37,598 nt of DNA from Planctomycetota bacterium (GTDB lineage: Bacteria; Planctomycetota; UBA8108; UBA1146): positions 1 through 37,598 of the forward strand of contig JAYZBV010000104.1 in NCBI GenBank assembly GCA_036338595.1. The letters are read 5' to 3'. The first letter of the stretch is position 1, and every line of letters starts with the position of its first letter. This document shows, one piece after another, positions 1 to 35,492 of this stretch. The translations under genes and the position numbers were made by a program. The notes beneath the pieces are model-generated. The model was not told the DNA's origin, did not search any database, and saw only the letters and a program-made list of their open reading frames with translations.

Positions 1-555
1 GACCTGTTCGCCCGATCCAGCACCACGGAAGCGGAACCGATCCGTGTCCGAGGGCTTCATTCGATCGAGGGTGAGGTCGACGCGCTGCATCGACTCAATC
101 AGGACCATGTGCCGCAACTCGGCGGACTCGATCGGACCGACTTCGAGGCGCTGCTACGCTGTGCATCGCTGGTGCGGGTGGTCGATGGGGCGAGACCAGA
201 CGATACAGCGGTGGCGCGGCCACCGGCGGCGATGATGGTCGCGATGCGCCGCGATGACGATTACAACAGCCCCAACTTCCTGTGGTTTCGAGAAGGGTTC
301 GACAACTTCGCCTATGTCGATCGCATCGCCACCGCCGCAGCCGCCAGGCGAAGCGGTGCCGGATCAGCGCTGTACGCGGTACTGGAGGCGTGGGCGAGAA
401 GATACGAGATGACCTCCATCGTGTGCGAGGTCAACCTGCAGCCGCGCAACCAGGGCAGTCTCGATTTCCACAACGCCTGCGGCTTCCGCGAGGTGGGCCA
501 GAAACTGAGCCACGGCAAACCGGTGGCGATGATGCAGAAGCTGCTGGCACACTAG
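1..555 (+). CDS. GNAT-family N-acetyltransferase (COG3818-like), 5'-truncated by the window edge
   Basis: Frame 1 is open from base 1 (DLFARSSTTEAEPIRVRGLHSIEGEVDALHRLNQDHVPQL...) to TAG at 553-555. Motifs YNSPNFLWF, YVDRIA...RRSGAGSALY (acetyl-CoA motif A) and CEVNLQPRNQGSLDFHNACGFREVG fit this GNAT subfamily. Confidence 0.85.
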   Translation, partial: DLFARSSTTEAEPIRVRGLHSIEGEVDALHRLNQDHVPQLGGLDRTDFEALLRCASLVRVVDGARPDDTAVARPPAAMMVAMRRDDDYNSPNFLWFREGFDNFAYVDRIATAAAARRSGAGSALYAVLEAWARRYEMTSIVCEVNLQPRNQGSLDFHNACGFREVGQKLSHGKPVAMMQKLLAH

Positions 556-599
556 CCAGAACTGCTTCGCGGCTTCCTCCGGAACAAAGTTCGACTTCT

Positions 600-888
600 G
601 ATAAGAAGAAACAGCAGCCAGGGCCCCCCTGATAAGAGAGTACCTCTGCCACGGTGTGACCCGGGTGAATCGGTGCTGTGGATAAGAGGATCTGCCGCGG
701 AACCGGCCGAGTGAGGGAAGATTTGATAAGAATGTGCCCCGGTCGATGTCAGAAGATAAGAGGCACGGATGGTCGAGTCATAAGAAAGATGCTGTGGCGG
801 TATAAGAGCATAAGAGCGCGGACACTCCGTCGATAAGAGCTGCCCCAGAAAAGTTCCTCCAATAAGAGGAGTCTCCTCCAGTAAGAGG
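600..888 (+). repeat. Array of 11 same-orientation short motifs, consensus (G)ATAAGA(G/A), in a convergent intergenic region; candidate ncRNA or protein-binding array
   Basis: ATAAGA starts at 601, 632, 682, 726, 756, 780, 802, 810, 833 and 862, with GTAAGA at 881. Every copy is followed by a purine. Spacing is irregular (8-50 nt). Confidence 0.9.
677..685 (-). promoter_or_regulatory. Perfect DnaA-box sequence (TTATCCACA on the minus strand); function unproven
   Basis: The plus strand reads TGTGGATAA at 677-685 and overlaps motif copy 3 of the array. Confidence 0.3.
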
Positions 889-926
889 GTAAACGAGACT
901 GCGATACCCTGCTCTGGCATGGTTCC

Positions 927-1541
927 TCAACCATCGGACGGTTGCGAATATCCAATCACTCCCTGGCTGACCCTGGCGCCGGCGTTGCCGGTGGGTTGGC
1001 CGCCGTCATCGACCTTGGCGTGGATGATGACCCCTCTTCCGATGATGGGATTGTGAGTGCCGTCGAGGGTCACATTATCGATGGTGATCGAGTAGCTGGC
1101 ATTGCCGTCGGCATCGGCGCTCAGGTTTCCGAGATCTCCGGCGTGACGCATCTCGGTGCTGGGCAGCGCATGATCGTGTCCCTCGGGGTTGTAGTGGCCA
1201 CCCGTGCCCTTGCCATCGTTCTTGCGTAGATCGCCGTACTGATGGATGTGTATGGCGTGATCGCCGGGAGAGAGTCCTGAGATGTTTGCATCGACCTGGA
1301 TGCCACCTTTTGTACCGGTGAAGGTGACGGTGCCCTGGGCCTTGTTGCCGGCAGTGGGAGTCATCACCGCTACCAGGACCCGACCAGCCTGTCGCTGGGC
1401 ATCGACCATGGCCGCCATCTCCTGGGCTTCCTGTTGTGCCATCTGGTCCTGCATAGCATGGTCATTGACGGGAACACACCCTGAAAGAATGCCGCCAAGC
1501 AGTGCCAGGATGGAGATGGTAACCAGTTTCTGGATCGTCAT
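927..1541 (-). CDS. sodC: Cu/Zn superoxide dismutase, lipoprotein
   Basis: Lipobox LSGC. Metal-ligand motifs HAIHIH, GGHYNP, HDHALP, RHAGDLGN and IIH, plus the C-terminal GNAGAR...GVIG. AGGAG ribosome-binding site upstream. Confidence 0.95.
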   Translation of the reverse strand: MTIQKLVTISILALLGGILSGCVPVNDHAMQDQMAQQEAQEMAAMVDAQRQAGRVLVAVMTPTAGNKAQGTVTFTGTKGGIQVDANISGLSPGDHAIHIHQYGDLRKNDGKGTGGHYNPEGHDHALPSTEMRHAGDLGNLSADADGNASYSITIDNVTLDGTHNPIIGRGVIIHAKVDDGGQPTGNAGARVSQGVIGYSQPSDG

Positions 1542-2698: not shown

Positions 2699-3925
2699 TC
2701 ACCTTGCGGTAGCCGATTCGAGGTTGGCGGCGGCGACCGCTTTCTCTAGCATTTCCAGTTCAGGAGTGCCCTGCAGCGCCGAGTTCCCACGGGCGTATTC
2801 GATGATTGAGGTGTGCCTGAAGTAGGTCTCACTCGGATCTCCGCGACGCTGCCTCTTTCGTGTGTCCGTGAACATGGGGCTTGCCCCCGCCTCGAGAAGC
2901 TTGGGGATGATGTCCAGATTGTGCTCGCAGCACTTCCTCACGGCGGCGAGCAGTGGCCGCGACCGTTCATCGCCTTGATTCACATCGGCACCTGCATCGA
3001 GCAGCATCTGGACGATCTCGGATGCGTGTCTGCACCGATGAGCCCCTGAGTCATAGAGGCAAGAGGTGATCATGGAGATGCCTTGCGGATCTGGATCGGC
3101 TCCCAGTTCCAGCAGTAATGAGATCACTTCCGGGGATTTCTTGCGCGAGATGGCAGTTTTCAGTGCATCTGCTCTGGCGACCCCATCGAAAGCGGCCCCC
3201 TGGGAAATCAACCAGCGGATCTTGTCCTGCCATTCCGGATCGAAAGATTCCTTCTTCTCTGGCGGCTTCGGCGGCTCCAGGCCCTTTTCGATGTAAGCGA
3301 GATCGATTTTCGCCCTGGCGACATTGAAGGACTTATCTGCAGCCTTGCTCTTATCCTTGCTTTCAGTGTGCGCCGGTGAATCAGGGGAACCCTTTTCGAT
3401 CAACTGAGTCAGGGGCGAATGCCTTCGCATCTCTGTATCCGATTTTCCGTCCACATCCGCGCCCAGTTCGATCAGAAGATCTCCGGTGATCTTCCAGTTA
3501 GACCCGGGCTTCGCGCGAAGATTCAAATCCAACGGAGTATGACCAAATAGCCACGCGGAATCGAGGTCGGCCCCGGCCTCGGCTGCTGCACGGATGATCG
3601 CAGTCTTGTTCTCGTAAGCCTCCGGCGTGGTCCCGTCAGACATCATCATGAACTGGATGAGGGTCGTGCCGAAGGCGGAGCGCTCCTCGTGATCGATGGG
3701 CATGCCACTGGCAAGAGCCATTTCCAGCCGATCGACCGAAGTGCTGGCCAGCATCCATCGGGCGCTTTTTTCTTTCTTGTCAAGCATGGACCACGGGACT
3801 CGGGCTTTGATGAAATTGAAGATGAAGGGTGAAGCGACCATGAGCAGCACCAGAATTGTCTTCCCGATGCCGGATGACTTCTTCGGCGGGGATTGGCCGT
3901 TTGTTTCCTGAAGGGTGTCGATCAT
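2699..3925 (-). CDS. Membrane-anchored ankyrin-repeat protein
   Basis: N-terminal hydrophobic helix ILVLLMVASPFIF. Ankyrin-like units GHTPLD...LLIELGADVD, LLLELGADPD, MLLDAGADVN...RPLLAAV and LLEAGASP. GAGGAGG ribosome-binding site. Confidence 0.8.
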   Translation of the reverse strand: MIDTLQETNGQSPPKKSSGIGKTILVLLMVASPFIFNFIKARVPWSMLDKKEKSARWMLASTSVDRLEMALASGMPIDHEERSAFGTTLIQFMMMSDGTTPEAYENKTAIIRAAAEAGADLDSAWLFGHTPLDLNLRAKPGSNWKITGDLLIELGADVDGKSDTEMRRHSPLTQLIEKGSPDSPAHTESKDKSKAADKSFNVARAKIDLAYIEKGLEPPKPPEKKESFDPEWQDKIRWLISQGAAFDGVARADALKTAISRKKSPEVISLLLELGADPDPQGISMITSCLYDSGAHRCRHASEIVQMLLDAGADVNQGDERSRPLLAAVRKCCEHNLDIIPKLLEAGASPMFTDTRKRQRRGDPSETYFRHTSIIEYARGNSALQGTPELEMLEKAVAAANLESATAR

Positions 3926-29862: not shown

Positions 29863-30387
29863 ATGTCGAGTCTCAGCGCATTTTCTCTCAAACAGTGGAT
29901 CGATGAACACCGGCACCTGCTCAAACCCCCGGTCGGAAATCAGGTCGTATGGGAAGATACCGATACGATCGTGATGATCGTCGGTGGCCCCAACAAGCGC
30001 AAAGATTTCCACATCAATGAAACCGAGGAGTTTTTTCACCAGCTCGAAGGCGACATCGTGCTGCGGATCAAGGAGGGCGACGAGTACAGGGATATCGACA
30101 TCCGCGAGGGCGATGTGATGCTGCTGCCCCCTGGGATCCCTCACTCTCCTCAGCGCGGAGCCAATACCGTGGGAATGGTCGTGGAGAGAAAGCGATCCGC
30201 AGCGATGGAAGACCAGTTTGTCGTCTTCTGTGAAGAGTGCGATCACCAGGTATTTCACTCACAATTCCACCTCGTGGACATCGTTCGCCAGCTGAAGCCC
30301 CTGATGGAAAATTTCTGGGCAGATGAGACGAAACGTACCTGCTCGAATTGCGGCGCTATCGTTCAGCCGGCAGTCAAGAGCGACTAG
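29863..30387 (+). CDS. nbaC: 3-hydroxyanthranilate 3,4-dioxygenase
   Basis: WIDEHRHLLKPPVGN, VMIVGGPNKRKDFH, EEFFHQLEGD and PHSPQR, plus the rubredoxin-like CEEC...CSNC site. Confidence 0.96.
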   Translation: MSSLSAFSLKQWIDEHRHLLKPPVGNQVVWEDTDTIVMIVGGPNKRKDFHINETEEFFHQLEGDIVLRIKEGDEYRDIDIREGDVMLLPPGIPHSPQRGANTVGMVVERKRSAAMEDQFVVFCEECDHQVFHSQFHLVDIVRQLKPLMENFWADETKRTCSNCGAIVQPAVKSD

Positions 30388-30409
30388 AAGTGCCCCGGGG
30401 GAGAGTTTC

Positions 30410-31447
30410 TTGTCACTGAAGATAGATCTGCATACTCACATCTTGCCCCGGCAGTGGCCCGACCTTTCCAGGCGTTACGGTTACGATGGATTCGTCACCA
30501 TCGAGCACCATGCTCCTTGCTGTGCCAGGCTGTGGAAGGACGGCGCCTTCTTCAGAGAGATCGATGACCGCTGCTGGGACCCTCAGAAGAGAATCGAGGA
30601 TTGTGACCTGCACGGGGTCGATGTGCAGGCGTTGTCGACGGTACCGATCATGTTCAGTTACTGGGCGCAGCCTGCGGATGCCGATGACCTGTCACGTCTC
30701 CTCAATGATCACATCGCAGAAGTGGTGAAGGATCACCCTGATCGTTTCGTCGGCCTCGGGACGGTGCCGCTGCAGGATCCCGACCTGGCCATCCAGGAGA
30801 TGGAGAGATGCGTCGACGAACTCGGATTTCCAGGGCTTCAGATCGGAACTCATTGCGGCGAGTGGAATCTCGACGCTCCCGAGCTGTTCCCGTTCCTCGA
30901 ACGAGCGTCTAGCCTCGGAACATCCATCTTCATTCATCCGTGGGATATGCTCGGTGCCGATCGTCTGGGGTCATATTTCTTGCCCTGGCTCGTCGGGATG
31001 CCGGCCGAGACGAGTCTGGCCATCTGTTCCGTCATCTTTGGCGGAGTCCTCGATCGATTGCCCGAACTAAAGATCTGCTTTGCCCACGGAGGTGGTTCCT
31101 TTCCTGCAACACTGGCACGGATTGACAAGGGCCATCTGGCCCGTCCCGACCTCTGTGGCGTCAACGGTTGCAAGGCACCTCGAGAGTATATCGATCGGCT
31201 GTATCTGGACACGCTGGTCCACGATCCGAAGACGCTGGATTTTGTGATCGACATCTTCGGTACAGATCAACTGGCACTGGGATCCGATTATCCCTTTCCG
31301 CTCGGCGAGGACCACCCGGGCAAGATGATCGAGGAGATGGATTCCATCTCTGCAGATCAGAAGAGGCGTCTGCTCGGGGGCACGGCGCTGGAGTTCCTCG
31401 GTATCGAATCCGCTGTTTTTCACAGCGATGCGACGGGGACCAGTTGA
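30410..31447 (+). CDS. nbaD: 2-amino-3-carboxymuconate-6-semialdehyde decarboxylase (ACMSD, amidohydrolase family)
   Basis: KIDLHTHILP, QALSTVPIMFSYWA, FIHPWDM, PWLVGMPAET, FAHGGGSFP and LGSDYPFPLGE. Start taken as TTG 30410. Confidence 0.94.
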   Translation: MSLKIDLHTHILPRQWPDLSRRYGYDGFVTIEHHAPCCARLWKDGAFFREIDDRCWDPQKRIEDCDLHGVDVQALSTVPIMFSYWAQPADADDLSRLLNDHIAEVVKDHPDRFVGLGTVPLQDPDLAIQEMERCVDELGFPGLQIGTHCGEWNLDAPELFPFLERASSLGTSIFIHPWDMLGADRLGSYFLPWLVGMPAETSLAICSVIFGGVLDRLPELKICFAHGGGSFPATLARIDKGHLARPDLCGVNGCKAPREYIDRLYLDTLVHDPKTLDFVIDIFGTDQLALGSDYPFPLGEDHPGKMIEEMDSISADQKRRLLGGTALEFLGIESAVFHSDATGTS

Positions 31448-32748
31448 TGCAATCGGAGAATGAGAGACCCCTCCAGGATGCCGCTTCACGGGATGCGAAT
31501 GAGCCTCTCGGTCAATTCAGGGATCGGTTTCATATTCCAACGCGGCAAGATGGAGAGCCTCTCATCTACTTCAGTGGCAACTCGCTCGGATTGATGCCCA
31601 GGAAGTGCTTCGAGGATGTCACCGCAGAACTGGAAGCGTGGCGAGATCTTGCCGTGGCGGGGCACCTCGAGGGTCGCCACCCCTGGTACCCCTACCACGA
31701 GTCCTTCAGGGACAGTGGCGCGCGGCTCGTCGGCGCGAAGCCGATCGAGGTCGTGTTCATGAACACCCTGACGGCGAATCTCCACTTCCTGCTCGCTTCC
31801 TTCTATCGGCCCACAGCCGACCGGAGCAAGATTCTATGCGATTCTCCCATGTTTCCCTCCGACCTGTACGCACTTCAGGCTCAGGCGCGATGGCATCGCC
31901 TGGATCCAGACGAAGTGGTGCAGGTGATGAAACTCAGGGAAGGGGAGAGTACGCTGCGAGATGACGATGTGCTGCAGGCCATCGATGACCAACGAGATGA
32001 ACTGGCTCTCGTGATGTTTTCCGGTGTCAATTACTACACCGGACAGGCCTACGACATCGAAGCCATCTCAGCGAGATGCCAGCAATACGGAATCACCTTT
32101 GGACTCGACCTTGCCCATGCAGCCGGAAACCTAGATCTCAAGTTGCATGATCACGGTGTCGATTTTGCTGCCTGGTGTACCTACAAGTATGGCAACGCAG
32201 GACCCGGAGCGGTGGCGGGAGCGTTTGTTCATGAGCGCCATGCCGATGATCAGGAACTGGTCCGATTGGCAGGCTGGTGGGGGAACGACCCGGCCACTCG
32301 CTTTCGGATGGATGAGAACTCGAAGTTCATCGCGCATCCGGGTGCCGAGGGGTGGCAGGTCTCCAACCCTCCCATCTTTTCGATGGCACCGCTGCACACA
32401 TCGTTGGAGATCTTTGACGAGGCAGGAATCACTGCACTGCGTGAACGGTCGATTCGCCTCACTGGATATCTCGAGCAACGCATCGACTCCATCGGAGCAG
32501 ATCACTATCAGATCATCACGCCACGAGATCCTGATCGCCGTGGAGCGCAGATCTCCATACGGGTGATCGGAGATGCCAGCGCACTCCAGCAATCGCTGGA
32601 GGAGGCGGGGATCATCACCGATTTCCGGCCCCCCGATGTGGTTCGCGTCGCCCCGACACCGCTCTACAACACCTTCGAGGAGATCCATCGGTTCACCGAA
32701 GTGCTGGAGAGTGTCGCTCAGATCGGTTCGAAGCGGGGGAGGGACTGA
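31447..32748 (+). CDS. kynU: Kynureninase (PLP-dependent)
   Basis: YFSGNSLGLMP, MNTLTANLH, FPSDLYA, FGLDLAHAAGN, WCTYKYGNAGPG (PLP lysine), LAGWWG and RVAPTPLYNTF. TGATG coupling to nbaD. Confidence 0.96.
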   Translation: MQSENERPLQDAASRDANEPLGQFRDRFHIPTRQDGEPLIYFSGNSLGLMPRKCFEDVTAELEAWRDLAVAGHLEGRHPWYPYHESFRDSGARLVGAKPIEVVFMNTLTANLHFLLASFYRPTADRSKILCDSPMFPSDLYALQAQARWHRLDPDEVVQVMKLREGESTLRDDDVLQAIDDQRDELALVMFSGVNYYTGQAYDIEAISARCQQYGITFGLDLAHAAGNLDLKLHDHGVDFAAWCTYKYGNAGPGAVAGAFVHERHADDQELVRLAGWWGNDPATRFRMDENSKFIAHPGAEGWQVSNPPIFSMAPLHTSLEIFDEAGITALRERSIRLTGYLEQRIDSIGADHYQIITPRDPDRRGAQISIRVIGDASALQQSLEEAGIITDFRPPDVVRVAPTPLYNTFEEIHRFTEVLESVAQIGSKRGRD

Positions 32749-32749
32749 G

Positions 32750-34078
32750 ATGGCTACCGGGTCGATCGTCATCGTTGGCGGAGGCCTGACCGGAGCGCTG
32801 GCCGCCCTGGCCCTCGCCAGCGACGGATACAAGGTCGATCTGTACGAGCGAAGATCTGATATTCGTGAAGCGGAGGTGATTCGCGGGCGTAGCATCAATC
32901 TCGCCATCTCGGAACGTGGATTGACCGCCCTCGAACGTGTGGGCCTCAAGCAGAAGGCGCTGGAAATGTCGGTACCGATGCGTGGCCGACAGATGCACGA
33001 CATCGGCGGTTCACTGACGTTTCAACCCTACTCTGCAAATTCCGACGAGAACATCCACAGCATCTCCAGAGGTGAATTGAATCGGATTCTCATCACCGAG
33101 GCAGATCGATCAGATCGAGTTCAACTTCACTTCCACCACCGCTGTATCGATCTCGACACGGAGGCGAGTGTCGTCACCTTCCTGGATGATCGAACCGGAG
33201 ATCGGATCGAGGCGAGCGGTGACCTGATCATAGGCGGGGACGGTGTGAATTCCGCGGTTCGTGGTGCTCTGACCGATGCAGATGACCTTGAACTTCAGCA
33301 GTCCACCCTGAGCCACGGATACCTGGAACTGTACATCCCTCCGGCACGCGGTGGCGGTTTTCGGATCGAGAAGAACGCTCTTCACATATGGCCCCGAAAA
33401 TCCTTCATGATGATCGCACTTCCCAACGACGACGGCTCTTTCACCGGAACCTGTTTCTGGCCGCTGGAAGGGGAGGGCTGCTTCGGCAATCTCGGTGACG
33501 CCGCGCAGGTCAGTGACTATTTCGAGCGCTGGTTTCCCGATGTGCCGGATCTTGTCCCAGATCTTGAAGATCAGTTTCTTGCCGCCACCCCATCCACCCT
33601 GGTGACCGTCCGATGCCAGCCGTGGGTGGTCGGGGATACGGTTCTGATCGGAGATGCTGCCCACGCAGTGGTGCCTTTCTACGGCCAGGGGATGAACGCA
33701 GGATTCGAGGATGTGCGCATCCTGTGCGAGCAACTGGAGGCTCACCCTGGCGACCAACGATCGGCTCTCGAGAATTACGAGAAGCTCCGCATCGACAACG
33801 GCAACGCCATCGCAGATCTGGCCATCGCGAATTTCCACGAGATGCGAGACCATGTCGCAAGTCCGTGGTTTCAGTTGCGCAAGAAATTCGCAAATCTGCT
33901 GCAGAAAATGCTGCCGGGCTGGTACCGTCCCCTGTACTCGCTGGTTTCCTTCACGAACACACCCTACGCAGAAGCGATCGAGATTCACCGGAGGCAGACG
34001 CGAATTCTCAGCCTCTGGTCGATCTTCATCCTCGGTGCCTTTGTCTGGGCGGTGATCTGGATTGTGAGGAATGGATGA
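32750..34078 (+). CDS. kmo: Kynurenine 3-monooxygenase (FAD-dependent) with a C-terminal hydrophobic helix
   Basis: IVGGGLTG, GRSINLAISERG, LHIWPRKSFMMIALPNDDGSFT, IGDAAHAVVPFYGQGMNAGFED, NFHEMRDHV and PLYSLVSF. Confidence 0.95.
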   Translation: MATGSIVIVGGGLTGALAALALASDGYKVDLYERRSDIREAEVIRGRSINLAISERGLTALERVGLKQKALEMSVPMRGRQMHDIGGSLTFQPYSANSDENIHSISRGELNRILITEADRSDRVQLHFHHRCIDLDTEASVVTFLDDRTGDRIEASGDLIIGGDGVNSAVRGALTDADDLELQQSTLSHGYLELYIPPARGGGFRIEKNALHIWPRKSFMMIALPNDDGSFTGTCFWPLEGEGCFGNLGDAAQVSDYFERWFPDVPDLVPDLEDQFLAATPSTLVTVRCQPWVVGDTVLIGDAAHAVVPFYGQGMNAGFEDVRILCEQLEAHPGDQRSALENYEKLRIDNGNAIADLAIANFHEMRDHVASPWFQLRKKFANLLQKMLPGWYRPLYSLVSFTNTPYAEAIEIHRRQTRILSLWSIFILGAFVWAVIWIVRNG

Positions 34079-34857
34079 CTCTCACCTATCACGACTATCT
34101 GAAGATCGAGGATCTGCTCGATATCCAGGTGCCGCGTAGCGATCCACCCGAGCATGATGAAACGCTGTTCATCATCATCCATCAGACATACGAACTCTGG
34201 TTCAAGCAGTTCCTGCACGAGATGGATCGAACAGAACAGTTGATGGCTTCCGATGATCTGTGGGGTTGCATCGCGACGCTCAAGCGGATGCGGATGGTGA
34301 TGAAGACGCTGGTGCAGCAGGTCGACATCCTGGAGACGATGACACCCCTCTCCTTCGTTTCATTTCGAGACAGGCTCGATACCGCCAGCGGATTCCAATC
34401 GATGCAATTCAGGATTCTCGAGTTCAGACTGGGCCACAAGAGAGCAGGCTTGCTCGATGCGATCGAGGCGGGGGTGCCGCTTCGGGACAAGGTTCAGGAA
34501 GCGTTCGACGCACCGACGCTTCAGGATGCATTTCACGGTTTTCTATCGCGTATGGGATGTCAGATCCCCGATGAAGTGCTCGCTAGAGATGTGACCCGGC
34601 CGATCGCCGCCAACGATGCGGTGCAGGAAGAACTGCTGCGTGTTTATCAGCAGCAACCGGATGTCACCGTCCTGCTGGAACTCCTCACCGACATCGATGA
34701 GGGATTGCAGGAGTGGCGATACCGCCACGTGAAACTGGCGGAACGCACCATCGGTTCCAAGATCGGCACAGGTGGTAGCGATGGTGTCGAGTTCCTCAAG
34801 AAGTCCCTGTTTCGACCGATGTTCCCCGACCTGTGGGCGATCCGTTCCAGGATGTGA
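34075..34857 (+). CDS. kynA: Tryptophan 2,3-dioxygenase
   Basis: TYHDYLKIEDLL, HDETLFIIIHQTYELWFKQ, LETMTP, ASGFQSMQFR, WRYRHVKLAERTIG.K.GTGGS.G and FPDLWAIRS. ATGA overlap with kmo. Confidence 0.96.
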   Translation: MTLTYHDYLKIEDLLDIQVPRSDPPEHDETLFIIIHQTYELWFKQFLHEMDRTEQLMASDDLWGCIATLKRMRMVMKTLVQQVDILETMTPLSFVSFRDRLDTASGFQSMQFRILEFRLGHKRAGLLDAIEAGVPLRDKVQEAFDAPTLQDAFHGFLSRMGCQIPDEVLARDVTRPIAANDAVQEELLRVYQQQPDVTVLLELLTDIDEGLQEWRYRHVKLAERTIGSKIGTGGSDGVEFLKKSLFRPMFPDLWAIRSRM

Positions 34858-34865
34858 GGCGAGTG

Positions 34866-35492
34866 GTGAGCCTGATCGACATCTCTCCTGCATTATCGCC
34901 TTCGATCGCGGTTTTTCCGGGTGATTCTCCGCTGACCCGTGAAGTGCTGCTCGATCTCAGAAACGATGACAACCTGACGCTGTCGACGCTTCGTTCGACG
35001 GTTCACATCGGCAGCCATCTCGATGCCCCCAGTCACTACGACCGCGATGGAGCGACCATCGACCAGGTCGACCTGCAGCGGTGCATCGGTCCGTGCGAAC
35101 TGATGAAGATCGATGTCGAGAAGGGAGGTCAGATCGGGATCGATGACCTGCCTCGCAAACCGAGCAGTGAACGATTGCTGCTGGCGACCGGTACACACCC
35201 CGATCCACAGCACTGGGGTGGAGATTTTGCCGGCGTGCGGCCTGAACTGATCGAACAGCTGGCGAGCCAGGGAGTTCGCCTGCTCGGCATCGATACTCCC
35301 AGTGTCGATGTGGCCGATTCGAAGCAGTTGCCGTCTCACGATGCCTGTCGCCGTCACGATGTGCTGATCCTCGAGGGTCTGGTGCTCGATGAGGTGGACG
35401 ATGGCCACTACGAGTTGATCGCCTTGCCGCTCAAACTGACCGGCTTCGACGCCTCTCCGGTGCGCGCGGTATTGCGGAGCCTGGATCGTTGA
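34866..35492 (+). CDS. kynB: Kynurenine formamidase (arylformamidase, cyclase family)
   Basis: LIDISP...VFPGD, HIGSHLDAPSHY (HxGxHxDAPxH), GIDTPSVD, ILEGL and YELIALPLKL..FDASPVRAVLR; operon context. Confidence 0.93.
   Translation: MSLIDISPALSPSIAVFPGDSPLTREVLLDLRNDDNLTLSTLRSTVHIGSHLDAPSHYDRDGATIDQVDLQRCIGPCELMKIDVEKGGQIGIDDLPRKPSSERLLLATGTHPDPQHWGGDFAGVRPELIEQLASQGVRLLGIDTPSVDVADSKQLPSHDACRRHDVLILEGLVLDEVDDGHYELIALPLKLTGFDASPVRAVLRSLDR

Follow-up and report, generated by a model that had tools for sequence, protein, structure and literature searches.

What is a dense array of one short word, all on one strand, doing between the 3' ends of two convergent genes? The array lies near the left end of the window analysed here, a stretch of 37,598 nucleotides from an uncultured marine member of the Planctomycetota (assembly GCA_036338595.1, contig JAYZBV010000104.1). 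We call the source assembly G000 (2.9 Mb, 88% complete, 7% contamination). An original prediction, made from the letters of the window, had described the array as ATAAGA repeats and proposed a protein-sponge RNA or, alternatively, a multi-site DNA-binding array.

Sequence and coding status of the array

We re-counted the repeats in the letters and found ATAAGA at 601, 632, 682, 726, 756, 780, 802, 810, 833 and 862, all on the plus strand, with GTAAGA at 881. As described, a purine follows all 11 copies, G precedes 6 of the 10 ATAAGA copies, the copies are spread over three codon phases, and the region is bounded by two stops (555 and 927). The other convergent junctions of the window (-4, 3, 4 and 49 bp) agree with the list of open reading frames. 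The 371-bp length of this junction is correct as stated, but length alone does not make it unique, as 15 of the 204 convergent gaps of the genome, counted from crude gene calls, reach 300 bp or more.

The word is rarer than had been estimated, with 0.006 copies per 300 bp per strand instead of 0.03. G000 holds 122 copies of ATAAGA on both strands together, and the sole further copy in the window is at 3349 on the minus strand. The genome-wide count that had been proposed left the array as the only dense cluster (Poisson log10 p = -28.6 over the whole genome), with other same-strand clusters holding at most 2 copies per 400 bp. Among the non-period-3 clusters of 5-mers and 6-mers in the genome, the array ranks first by a wide margin. 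The base 5' of the core has changed twice in the homologue from the relative G008; hence, the constrained word is TAAGA, and the predicted array is real but its unit is not the hexamer. The features of the locus are collected in Table 1.

Table 1. Features of the array and its surroundings (window coordinates)
Feature	Position	Strand	Remarks
Kdo/WaaP-kinase-like + GNAT acetyltransferase fusion gene, 3' part	1..555	+	PF00583; left neighbour
122-aa open frame	552..920	-	not a gene
Conserved non-coding element	583..926	.	from G004 and G008 alignments; 556-582 poorly conserved in G004
Eleven TAAGA cores	602..886 (285 bases)	+	starts 602, 633, 683, 727, 757, 781, 803, 811, 834, 863, 882
Core-to-core gaps	602..886	+	31, 50, 44, 30, 24, 22, 8, 23, 29, 19
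G008 join of array to native-type sodC 3' fragment	602	+	0-1 base microhomology; one contig
Perfect DnaA-box match, single	677..685	-	overlaps core 3; broken in G008; judged incidental
Two one-mismatch cores	717-721, 749-753 (717..753)	+	in phase with exact cores
Hairpin around core 10, then short U run	855..870	-	possible sodC terminator; roughly kept in G004, G008
sodC, Cu/Zn superoxide dismutase	927..1541	-	PF00080; right neighbour

The left neighbour is truncated by the end of the window; its full-length copies in relatives combine PF06293 with PF00583. No promoter-like sites were found from 400 to 1073, and the array region has neither a plus-strand terminator nor a tRNA or tmRNA. The original prediction had named a 122-aa minus-strand open frame that, as a conserved protein under purifying selection, might explain the motif. 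We found that this frame carries a frameshift and a stop in G008 and differs at its C-end in the relative G004, that 7 of the 11 codons changed between G000 and G004 are non-synonymous, that its coding score is -0.23 (0.10-0.39 in called short genes), and that it has no Pfam match. The 122-aa frame is not a gene, and the array is non-coding.

Elsewhere in the window, the genes include a planctomycete cytochrome domain, and 29863-35492 holds a tryptophan/kynurenine breakdown cluster (3-HAO, amidohydrolase, kynureninase, FAD monooxygenase, tryptophan dioxygenase and cyclase).

Distribution, core constraint and apparent transfer

A DNA search of 61 genomes found the array only in G004 and G008 besides G000. 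A profile search of 59 genomes of the class returned only the three input copies and four weak matches, all in coding DNA, three of which we take to be rho. The kinase-GNAT gene occurs in 24 of 28 family genomes and has an array beside it in four of the 24 (G000, G004, G008 and G012). Eight of the 24 have a GNAT-sodC junction of a few tens of bases without the array, and the remaining 12 have other genes next and no more than a single TAAGA on either strand within 1 kb. Since it is absent beside the gene in 20 of 24 relatives, the array is dispensable, and it is an accessory element.

The short junction also occurs within the G000 assembly. A second allele (G000:C28:6890-7601, aligned to window 1-1034) is 93% identical and has a junction of about 45 bases without the array; the two alleles probably represent two co-binned strains. 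One contig from RNA run X3 ends in a junction resembling that of C28. Derivation of the C28 junction from the array was not significant (83/1000). A metagenome scan with the GNAT protein gave 10 loci, four with the tight GNAT-sodC junction and none with the array.

The G012 array, from another genus, has at least nine TAAGA cores at the kinase-GNAT locus in the opposite orientation relative to the GNAT gene, mostly spaced by 8-12 bases or a multiple thereof, and surrounds a run of about 165 N that we took as an assembly gap. Beyond TAAGA, we found no significant homology between the G012 and G000 arrays (best 38/500 shuffles; apparent remnant 371/2000).

The three alignable copies (G000, G004 and G008, two of them from sister species) were compared position by position. 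The cores vary at 1 of 111 compared positions and the spacers at 39 of 464; counted as distinct sites over the three species, 1 of 55 core sites and 31 of 230 spacer sites are variable (p = 0.009), and the difference holds relative to A/T spacer sites only (11 of 89 variable, p = 0.03). By this alignment, the TAAGA cores are kept by selection over the spacers. The G004 spacers differ at 11 of 230 sites, relative to 15 of 88 and 27 of 87 fourfold sites in the neighbouring genes; however, the sodC 3' end adjoining the array is equally similar (92-100% identical), so the low spacer divergence may reflect recent exchange rather than selection. Around core 9, independent duplications of 21 bases in G004 (two helical turns) and of 12 bases in G008 have changed the array.

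These duplications bear on whether the array is a repeat relic or selfish tract, derived from the purine-rich 6-11 bp tandem repeats of other planctomycetes by slippage and recombination and with no dedicated function. Such an origin fits the TAAGA tandem tracts in other genomes of the phylum, the 8-12 bp units of the G012 array and the lack of an array in most relatives, and heptamer repeats between convergent genes are described in the accessible part of PMC4692102. However, slippage leaves unexplained why exact cores persist amid spacers without mutual likeness, and such tracts often recur within a genome (25 and 22 matches in two cases), whereas the array is single, with no second copy in G000. 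The core flanks are near random (mean identity 0.33) and TRF reports one 8-bp doublet only in the G000 array; hence, the array is not a fresh tandem repeat. We consider a relic origin unlikely.

Across the phylum, 59 of 401 genomes match a three-motif pattern, and among the matches listed (38 more stand outside that list; 11 loci from the class and phylum scans were inspected) the multi-match cases outside the locus are short tandem or peptide repeats. Purine-rich tandem tracts of variable 6-8 bp units lie between genes in other planctomycetes (L198, L204, L205, L206 and L192), sometimes many per genome and often with an inverted partner or in a convergent-gene setting. Separately, L023:1490-1530 (G005:C15) has three RTAAGA at 9-base spacing immediately 5' of a start codon in AT-rich sequence.

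The relationships of G008 differ between the array and the rest of its genome. By contig identity, G008 is closer to G003 (93%) than to G004 (69-76%) and is grouped with the former; the MamK-like actins of G008 and G004 share 83% and 93% identity, respectively, with the G000 protein. Yet the last 250-300 bases of the G008 sodC are 88-98% identical to G000, and the rest of the gene groups with other relatives by both identity profile and tree. At its other end, the G008 array, from the first base of core 1, joins about 110 bases of native-type sodC 3' end; beyond this fragment lie an AT-rich Hsp70/DnaJ-TPR island and then the GNAT gene. In this one genome, whose array is split over two contigs so that a chimeric join is possible, the array was apparently imported together with the sodC 3' end. 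The structure would fit one homologous and one illegitimate crossover, a pair for which homology-facilitated illegitimate recombination provides a precedent (PMC6382021, in the part accessible). The array block thus seems to move between species.

Two observations concern the same region. The island (L090:225-5419, G008:C140) carries genes for an Hsp70, a pair of DnaJ-TPR proteins and a 300-aa product that looks GrpE-like by eye and has no Pfam match. Across the genus, sodC is mosaic, with its tree and identity profile in conflict with the neighbouring genes.

The G008 junction falls on the first base of core 1 and the locus is variable (the Hsp70/DnaJ island in G008; sodC missing from the locus in G012 and G018), as would be expected if the cores were binding or cutting sites for a recombinase or nickase and the array a remnant of an attachment site or transposon end at an integration hot spot. 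We regard this as very improbable. The junction is a single one on one metagenome contig, and a random break would fall at some core edge in about 6% of cases (hand estimate). Y1 transposases occur in 0 of 5 genomes, G000, G004, G012 and the array-free G003 alike have only two tyrosine recombinases, and there is no phage or plasmid match (phage blastn gave four 34-bp matches at E 0.4; plasmid blastn gave none). A REP/RAYT or IS200/IS605 remnant was rejected on the same lack of a Y1 transposase and of a second copy in G000.

Among viral contigs, one 18-mer match was found, in an AT-rich contig with unrelated flanks, and is about what chance would give by estimate. The matching sequence (L050:1-70, at the end of an 18-kb contig) contains a 39-base direct repeat with four ATAAGA beside a very AT-rich run.

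DNA and RNA readings of the array

Given the selection on the word and the apparent movement of the block between species, the array is probably a multi-site dock for a protein, on DNA or RNA. That it docks the protein as double-stranded DNA is a plausible reading, which we hold at somewhat less than an even chance. One sequence-specific protein would then read TAAGA/TCTTA, most likely in duplex DNA. Some dozen 5-base sites, each weak and roughly on one helix face, would favor cooperative binding of subunits, which would wrap or coat about 300 bp. The locus would serve as a sink that sequesters this protein or as a block where two transcription units meet head-on. Such an array would grow and shrink by short unit duplications and would spread by recombination with sodC as its homology anchor.

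The spacing of the cores was examined for helical phase. All 11 cores lie within 2.6 bp of one 10.5-bp phase; a third non-overlapping one-mismatch core, beyond the two in Table 1, is out of phase. Among periods of 6-20 bp, the best for G000 is 10.5 (R = 0.63; p = 0.005-0.012 at fixed 10.5), and the best for the 3' part of the G012 array is 10.3 (R about 0.9, p = 0.001-0.02). The phasing hints at double-stranded DNA, and for ArcA, sites repeated directly every one or two helical turns are an established binding layout (PMC3798270, available part). The G000 value becomes p = 0.09 with a period scan of 10.2-11.0 and 0.10 on gap permutation, and the G008 piece shows no significant phasing. As a control, AGGA in Escherichia coli CsrB gave R = 0.53 (p = 0.028, best period 10.4), and CsrC was not phased. 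Because the phase was noticed post hoc, is weaker under looser nulls and has a CsrB control at p = 0.03, the phase test shifts the balance between DNA and RNA little.

Further points counted for the DNA reading are the opposite orientation in G012, the 21-bp duplication in G004, the lack of a promoter-like site, plus-strand terminator or shared fold, and the genome-wide depletion of TAAGA (observed/expected 0.80, rank 10 of 1024). Counted against it are a like depletion of TAAGA in G018, whose locus lacks an array, the strong avoidance of TA throughout the G000 genome (observed/expected 0.36), the lack of an array beside the gene in most relatives and the small number of alignable copies (three). 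The cores lie on the G-rich strand in G000 and on the other strand in G012, so their orientation to replication is not fixed. As a separate observation, TAAG/CTTA in G000 coding DNA reaches about 0.2 of the synonymous-shuffle expectation.

We looked for a protein whose distribution tracks the array. The OmpR/PhoB family domain is found in 0 of 4 array genomes, and neither it nor the cold-shock domain, a Y1 transposase or an extra integrase tracks the array. The MamK-like actin does not track it either because the actin is universal in the family (28 of 28 genomes); a centromere for this actin was therefore rejected, and two parS patterns gave no match. A link to DnaA was rejected as well, with 1 of 11 sites matching a DnaA box, that one being broken in G008, and no conserved motif upstream of dnaA in five relatives. 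A replication origin or terminus was rejected on the lack of a GC-skew switch in the window; 400 kb of G003 and 267 kb of G018 (both array-free) have none either.

Three side observations on replication were made. The sole clear GC-skew turning point inside a long contig of G000 is near C113:83858, a candidate replication terminus. At G000:C23:14150-14200, about 450 bases 5' of a tyrosine recombinase gene, are two DnaA-box-like sites separated by about 30 bases. Six genomes from two genera share a visibly conserved block of about 250 bases in front of a dnaA paralogue (L048:480-1070, G000:C20; also L223-L227). The block matches nothing in Rfam at E up to 1 and is a candidate structured RNA or leader; a divergent 6S RNA would be a guess.

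Docking on RNA is possible but rather doubtful. The RNA would be a stand-alone small RNA or the read-through 3' end of a neighbour's mRNA, and its UAAGA (or UCUUA) repeats would titrate an RNA-binding protein that is neither CsrA nor Hfq, in the manner of CsrB but with a new word and with hardly any fixed structure. The size, one-strand bias, irregular spacing and copy-number change of the array are CsrB-like; CsrB itself has 22 GGA, according to the portion of PMC10729762 at hand, and similar phasing of about 10.4. Within the core, TAA tends to be unpaired in local folds of the three homologues (4, 9 and 2 of 90 shuffles on the plus strand, and 7, 7 and 0 of 90 on the minus strand), but the whole core is not more unpaired than in shuffles, whereas GGA in CsrB is (0/40). 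The plus-strand fold of G000 gave z = -2.36, but the three homologues together range over -2.36, -1.31 and +0.37, relative to -3.85 for the CsrB control. A long plus-strand helix pairing 700-717 with 907-925 stands out from shuffled sequences in G000 but not in the other two homologues (1, 11 and 29 of 60).

Covariation is not above shuffles (77/500, with only three sequences and no power), no fold is common to the three homologues, and the Rfam comparison returned seven matches (E 0.79-8.4), none of which came close to its gathering score. Single ATAAGA copies had been expected near ribosome-binding sites; they are not enriched there, with 6 of 112 other copies near a start relative to 0-5% for five control hexamers. 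A divergent anti-Shine-Dalgarno sequence was rejected because the genome uses ordinary AGGAG-type sites; the 3' end of its 16S rRNA gene is unassembled.

The partners that had been suggested, a CsrA paralogue or Hfq, were not found: CsrA occurs in 0 of 23 genomes of genera g1, g5 and g7, including G000 (and in 4 of 28 family genomes, none with an array), Hfq in 0 of 1 (G000 only, 88% complete) and the cold-shock domain in 0 of 5. An RRM protein is present in G004, G008, G012 and G003, but was not found in G000, and its gene leader has no motif. In addition, the G008 copy starts at core 1, without the upstream DNA in which a plus-strand promoter would lie.

Two RNA runs, each from a different study, have near-identical contigs that fall in the array (718-868 at depth 3; 652-809 at depth 10), and in run X1 the array contig is the only high-identity piece in 2.7 kb. 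These contigs are of single-read length and come from 2 of 4 RNA runs; X3 and X4 have no array cover, to which we attach no weight, and the runs with related sequence are marine or vent. The contigs leave some room for a poorly structured RNA sponge. However, the contigs are unstranded, possibly DNA and chosen by words in common with the query region, and the flanking genes are likewise covered in X2 and X3. Of the proposed protein sponge, a non-coding, selected element with many copies of one word is supported; a CsrB-type RNA with CsrA and a conserved fold is not. The alternative of a DNA array is slightly preferred here on phasing (p about 0.01), free orientation and the lack of a shared fold.

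Known systems and meaning for the Planctomycetota

Non-origin DNA sinks and site clusters include E. coli datA and the DnaA-box clusters of Bacillus. The array resembles these as a single mid-replichore cluster of sites for one putative protein away from promoters; unlike them, its cores are not DnaA boxes, and neither dnaA gene has a conserved upstream motif. CsrB/CsrC (Rsm) RNAs are similar in having 250-370 nt with many short purine-rich words on one strand at irregular spacing. They differ in their word (GGA, not TAAGA), in the lineage of the array lacking CsrA, in the array having no Rfam match, no clearly conserved hairpin presentation and no plus-strand terminator, and in its being accessory rather than core. 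CrcZ-type sponges of Hfq/Crc differ in that Hfq was found in 0 of 1 genome (G000, 88% complete).

OmpR/PhoB sites, as the accessible text of PMC3798270 describes them for ArcA, consist of short direct repeats at whole helical turns on one strand, a layout that the array may share. In contrast, the array lies downstream of both genes, has 11 sites in 285 bp with gaps up to 50, and occurs in four carriers without an OmpR-family domain. Long simple sequence repeats with 6-9 bp units (PMC4692102, same part) are also intergenic, may sit between convergent genes and have a counterpart in the TAAGA tracts of other planctomycetes, but the array is not tandem, its spacers are unique and up to 45 bp, it is single per genome and its cores are conserved. 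Head-to-tail units of one length are absent from G000 and partly present in G012. By analogy, the array may act in the manner of CsrB or of a datA-type sink, but it is a member of neither. In the literature searched, mostly outside subscription journals and including the accessible parts of PMC4682653 and PMC10729762, among others, we found no description of such an array.

We regard the array as a real, selected element that, on three alignable copies, seems to be mobile, and we infer its transfer from the G008 structure. Its binding by a protein, the partner, a role as sink or block and any effect would follow from the docking reading. A bolder and decidedly tentative reading, which we think improbable as a whole, sees the array as a titration cassette that carries no gene and moves horizontally. 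As DNA or RNA, it would act as a sponge for a TAAGA-reading protein outside the described families, in a lineage without CsrA and apparently without Hfq and cold-shock proteins. The cassette would have been assembled or re-inverted on two occasions at a single chromosomal site, in two genera, with sodC as the recombination anchor for its spread between species.

The four carriers and twenty non-carriers provide a ready profile for tracing the partner protein. If a protein reads the array, the Planctomycetota would have a new nucleic-acid word and its reader, found without a gene pointing to it, and a non-coding titration or insulator module that is traded between species.
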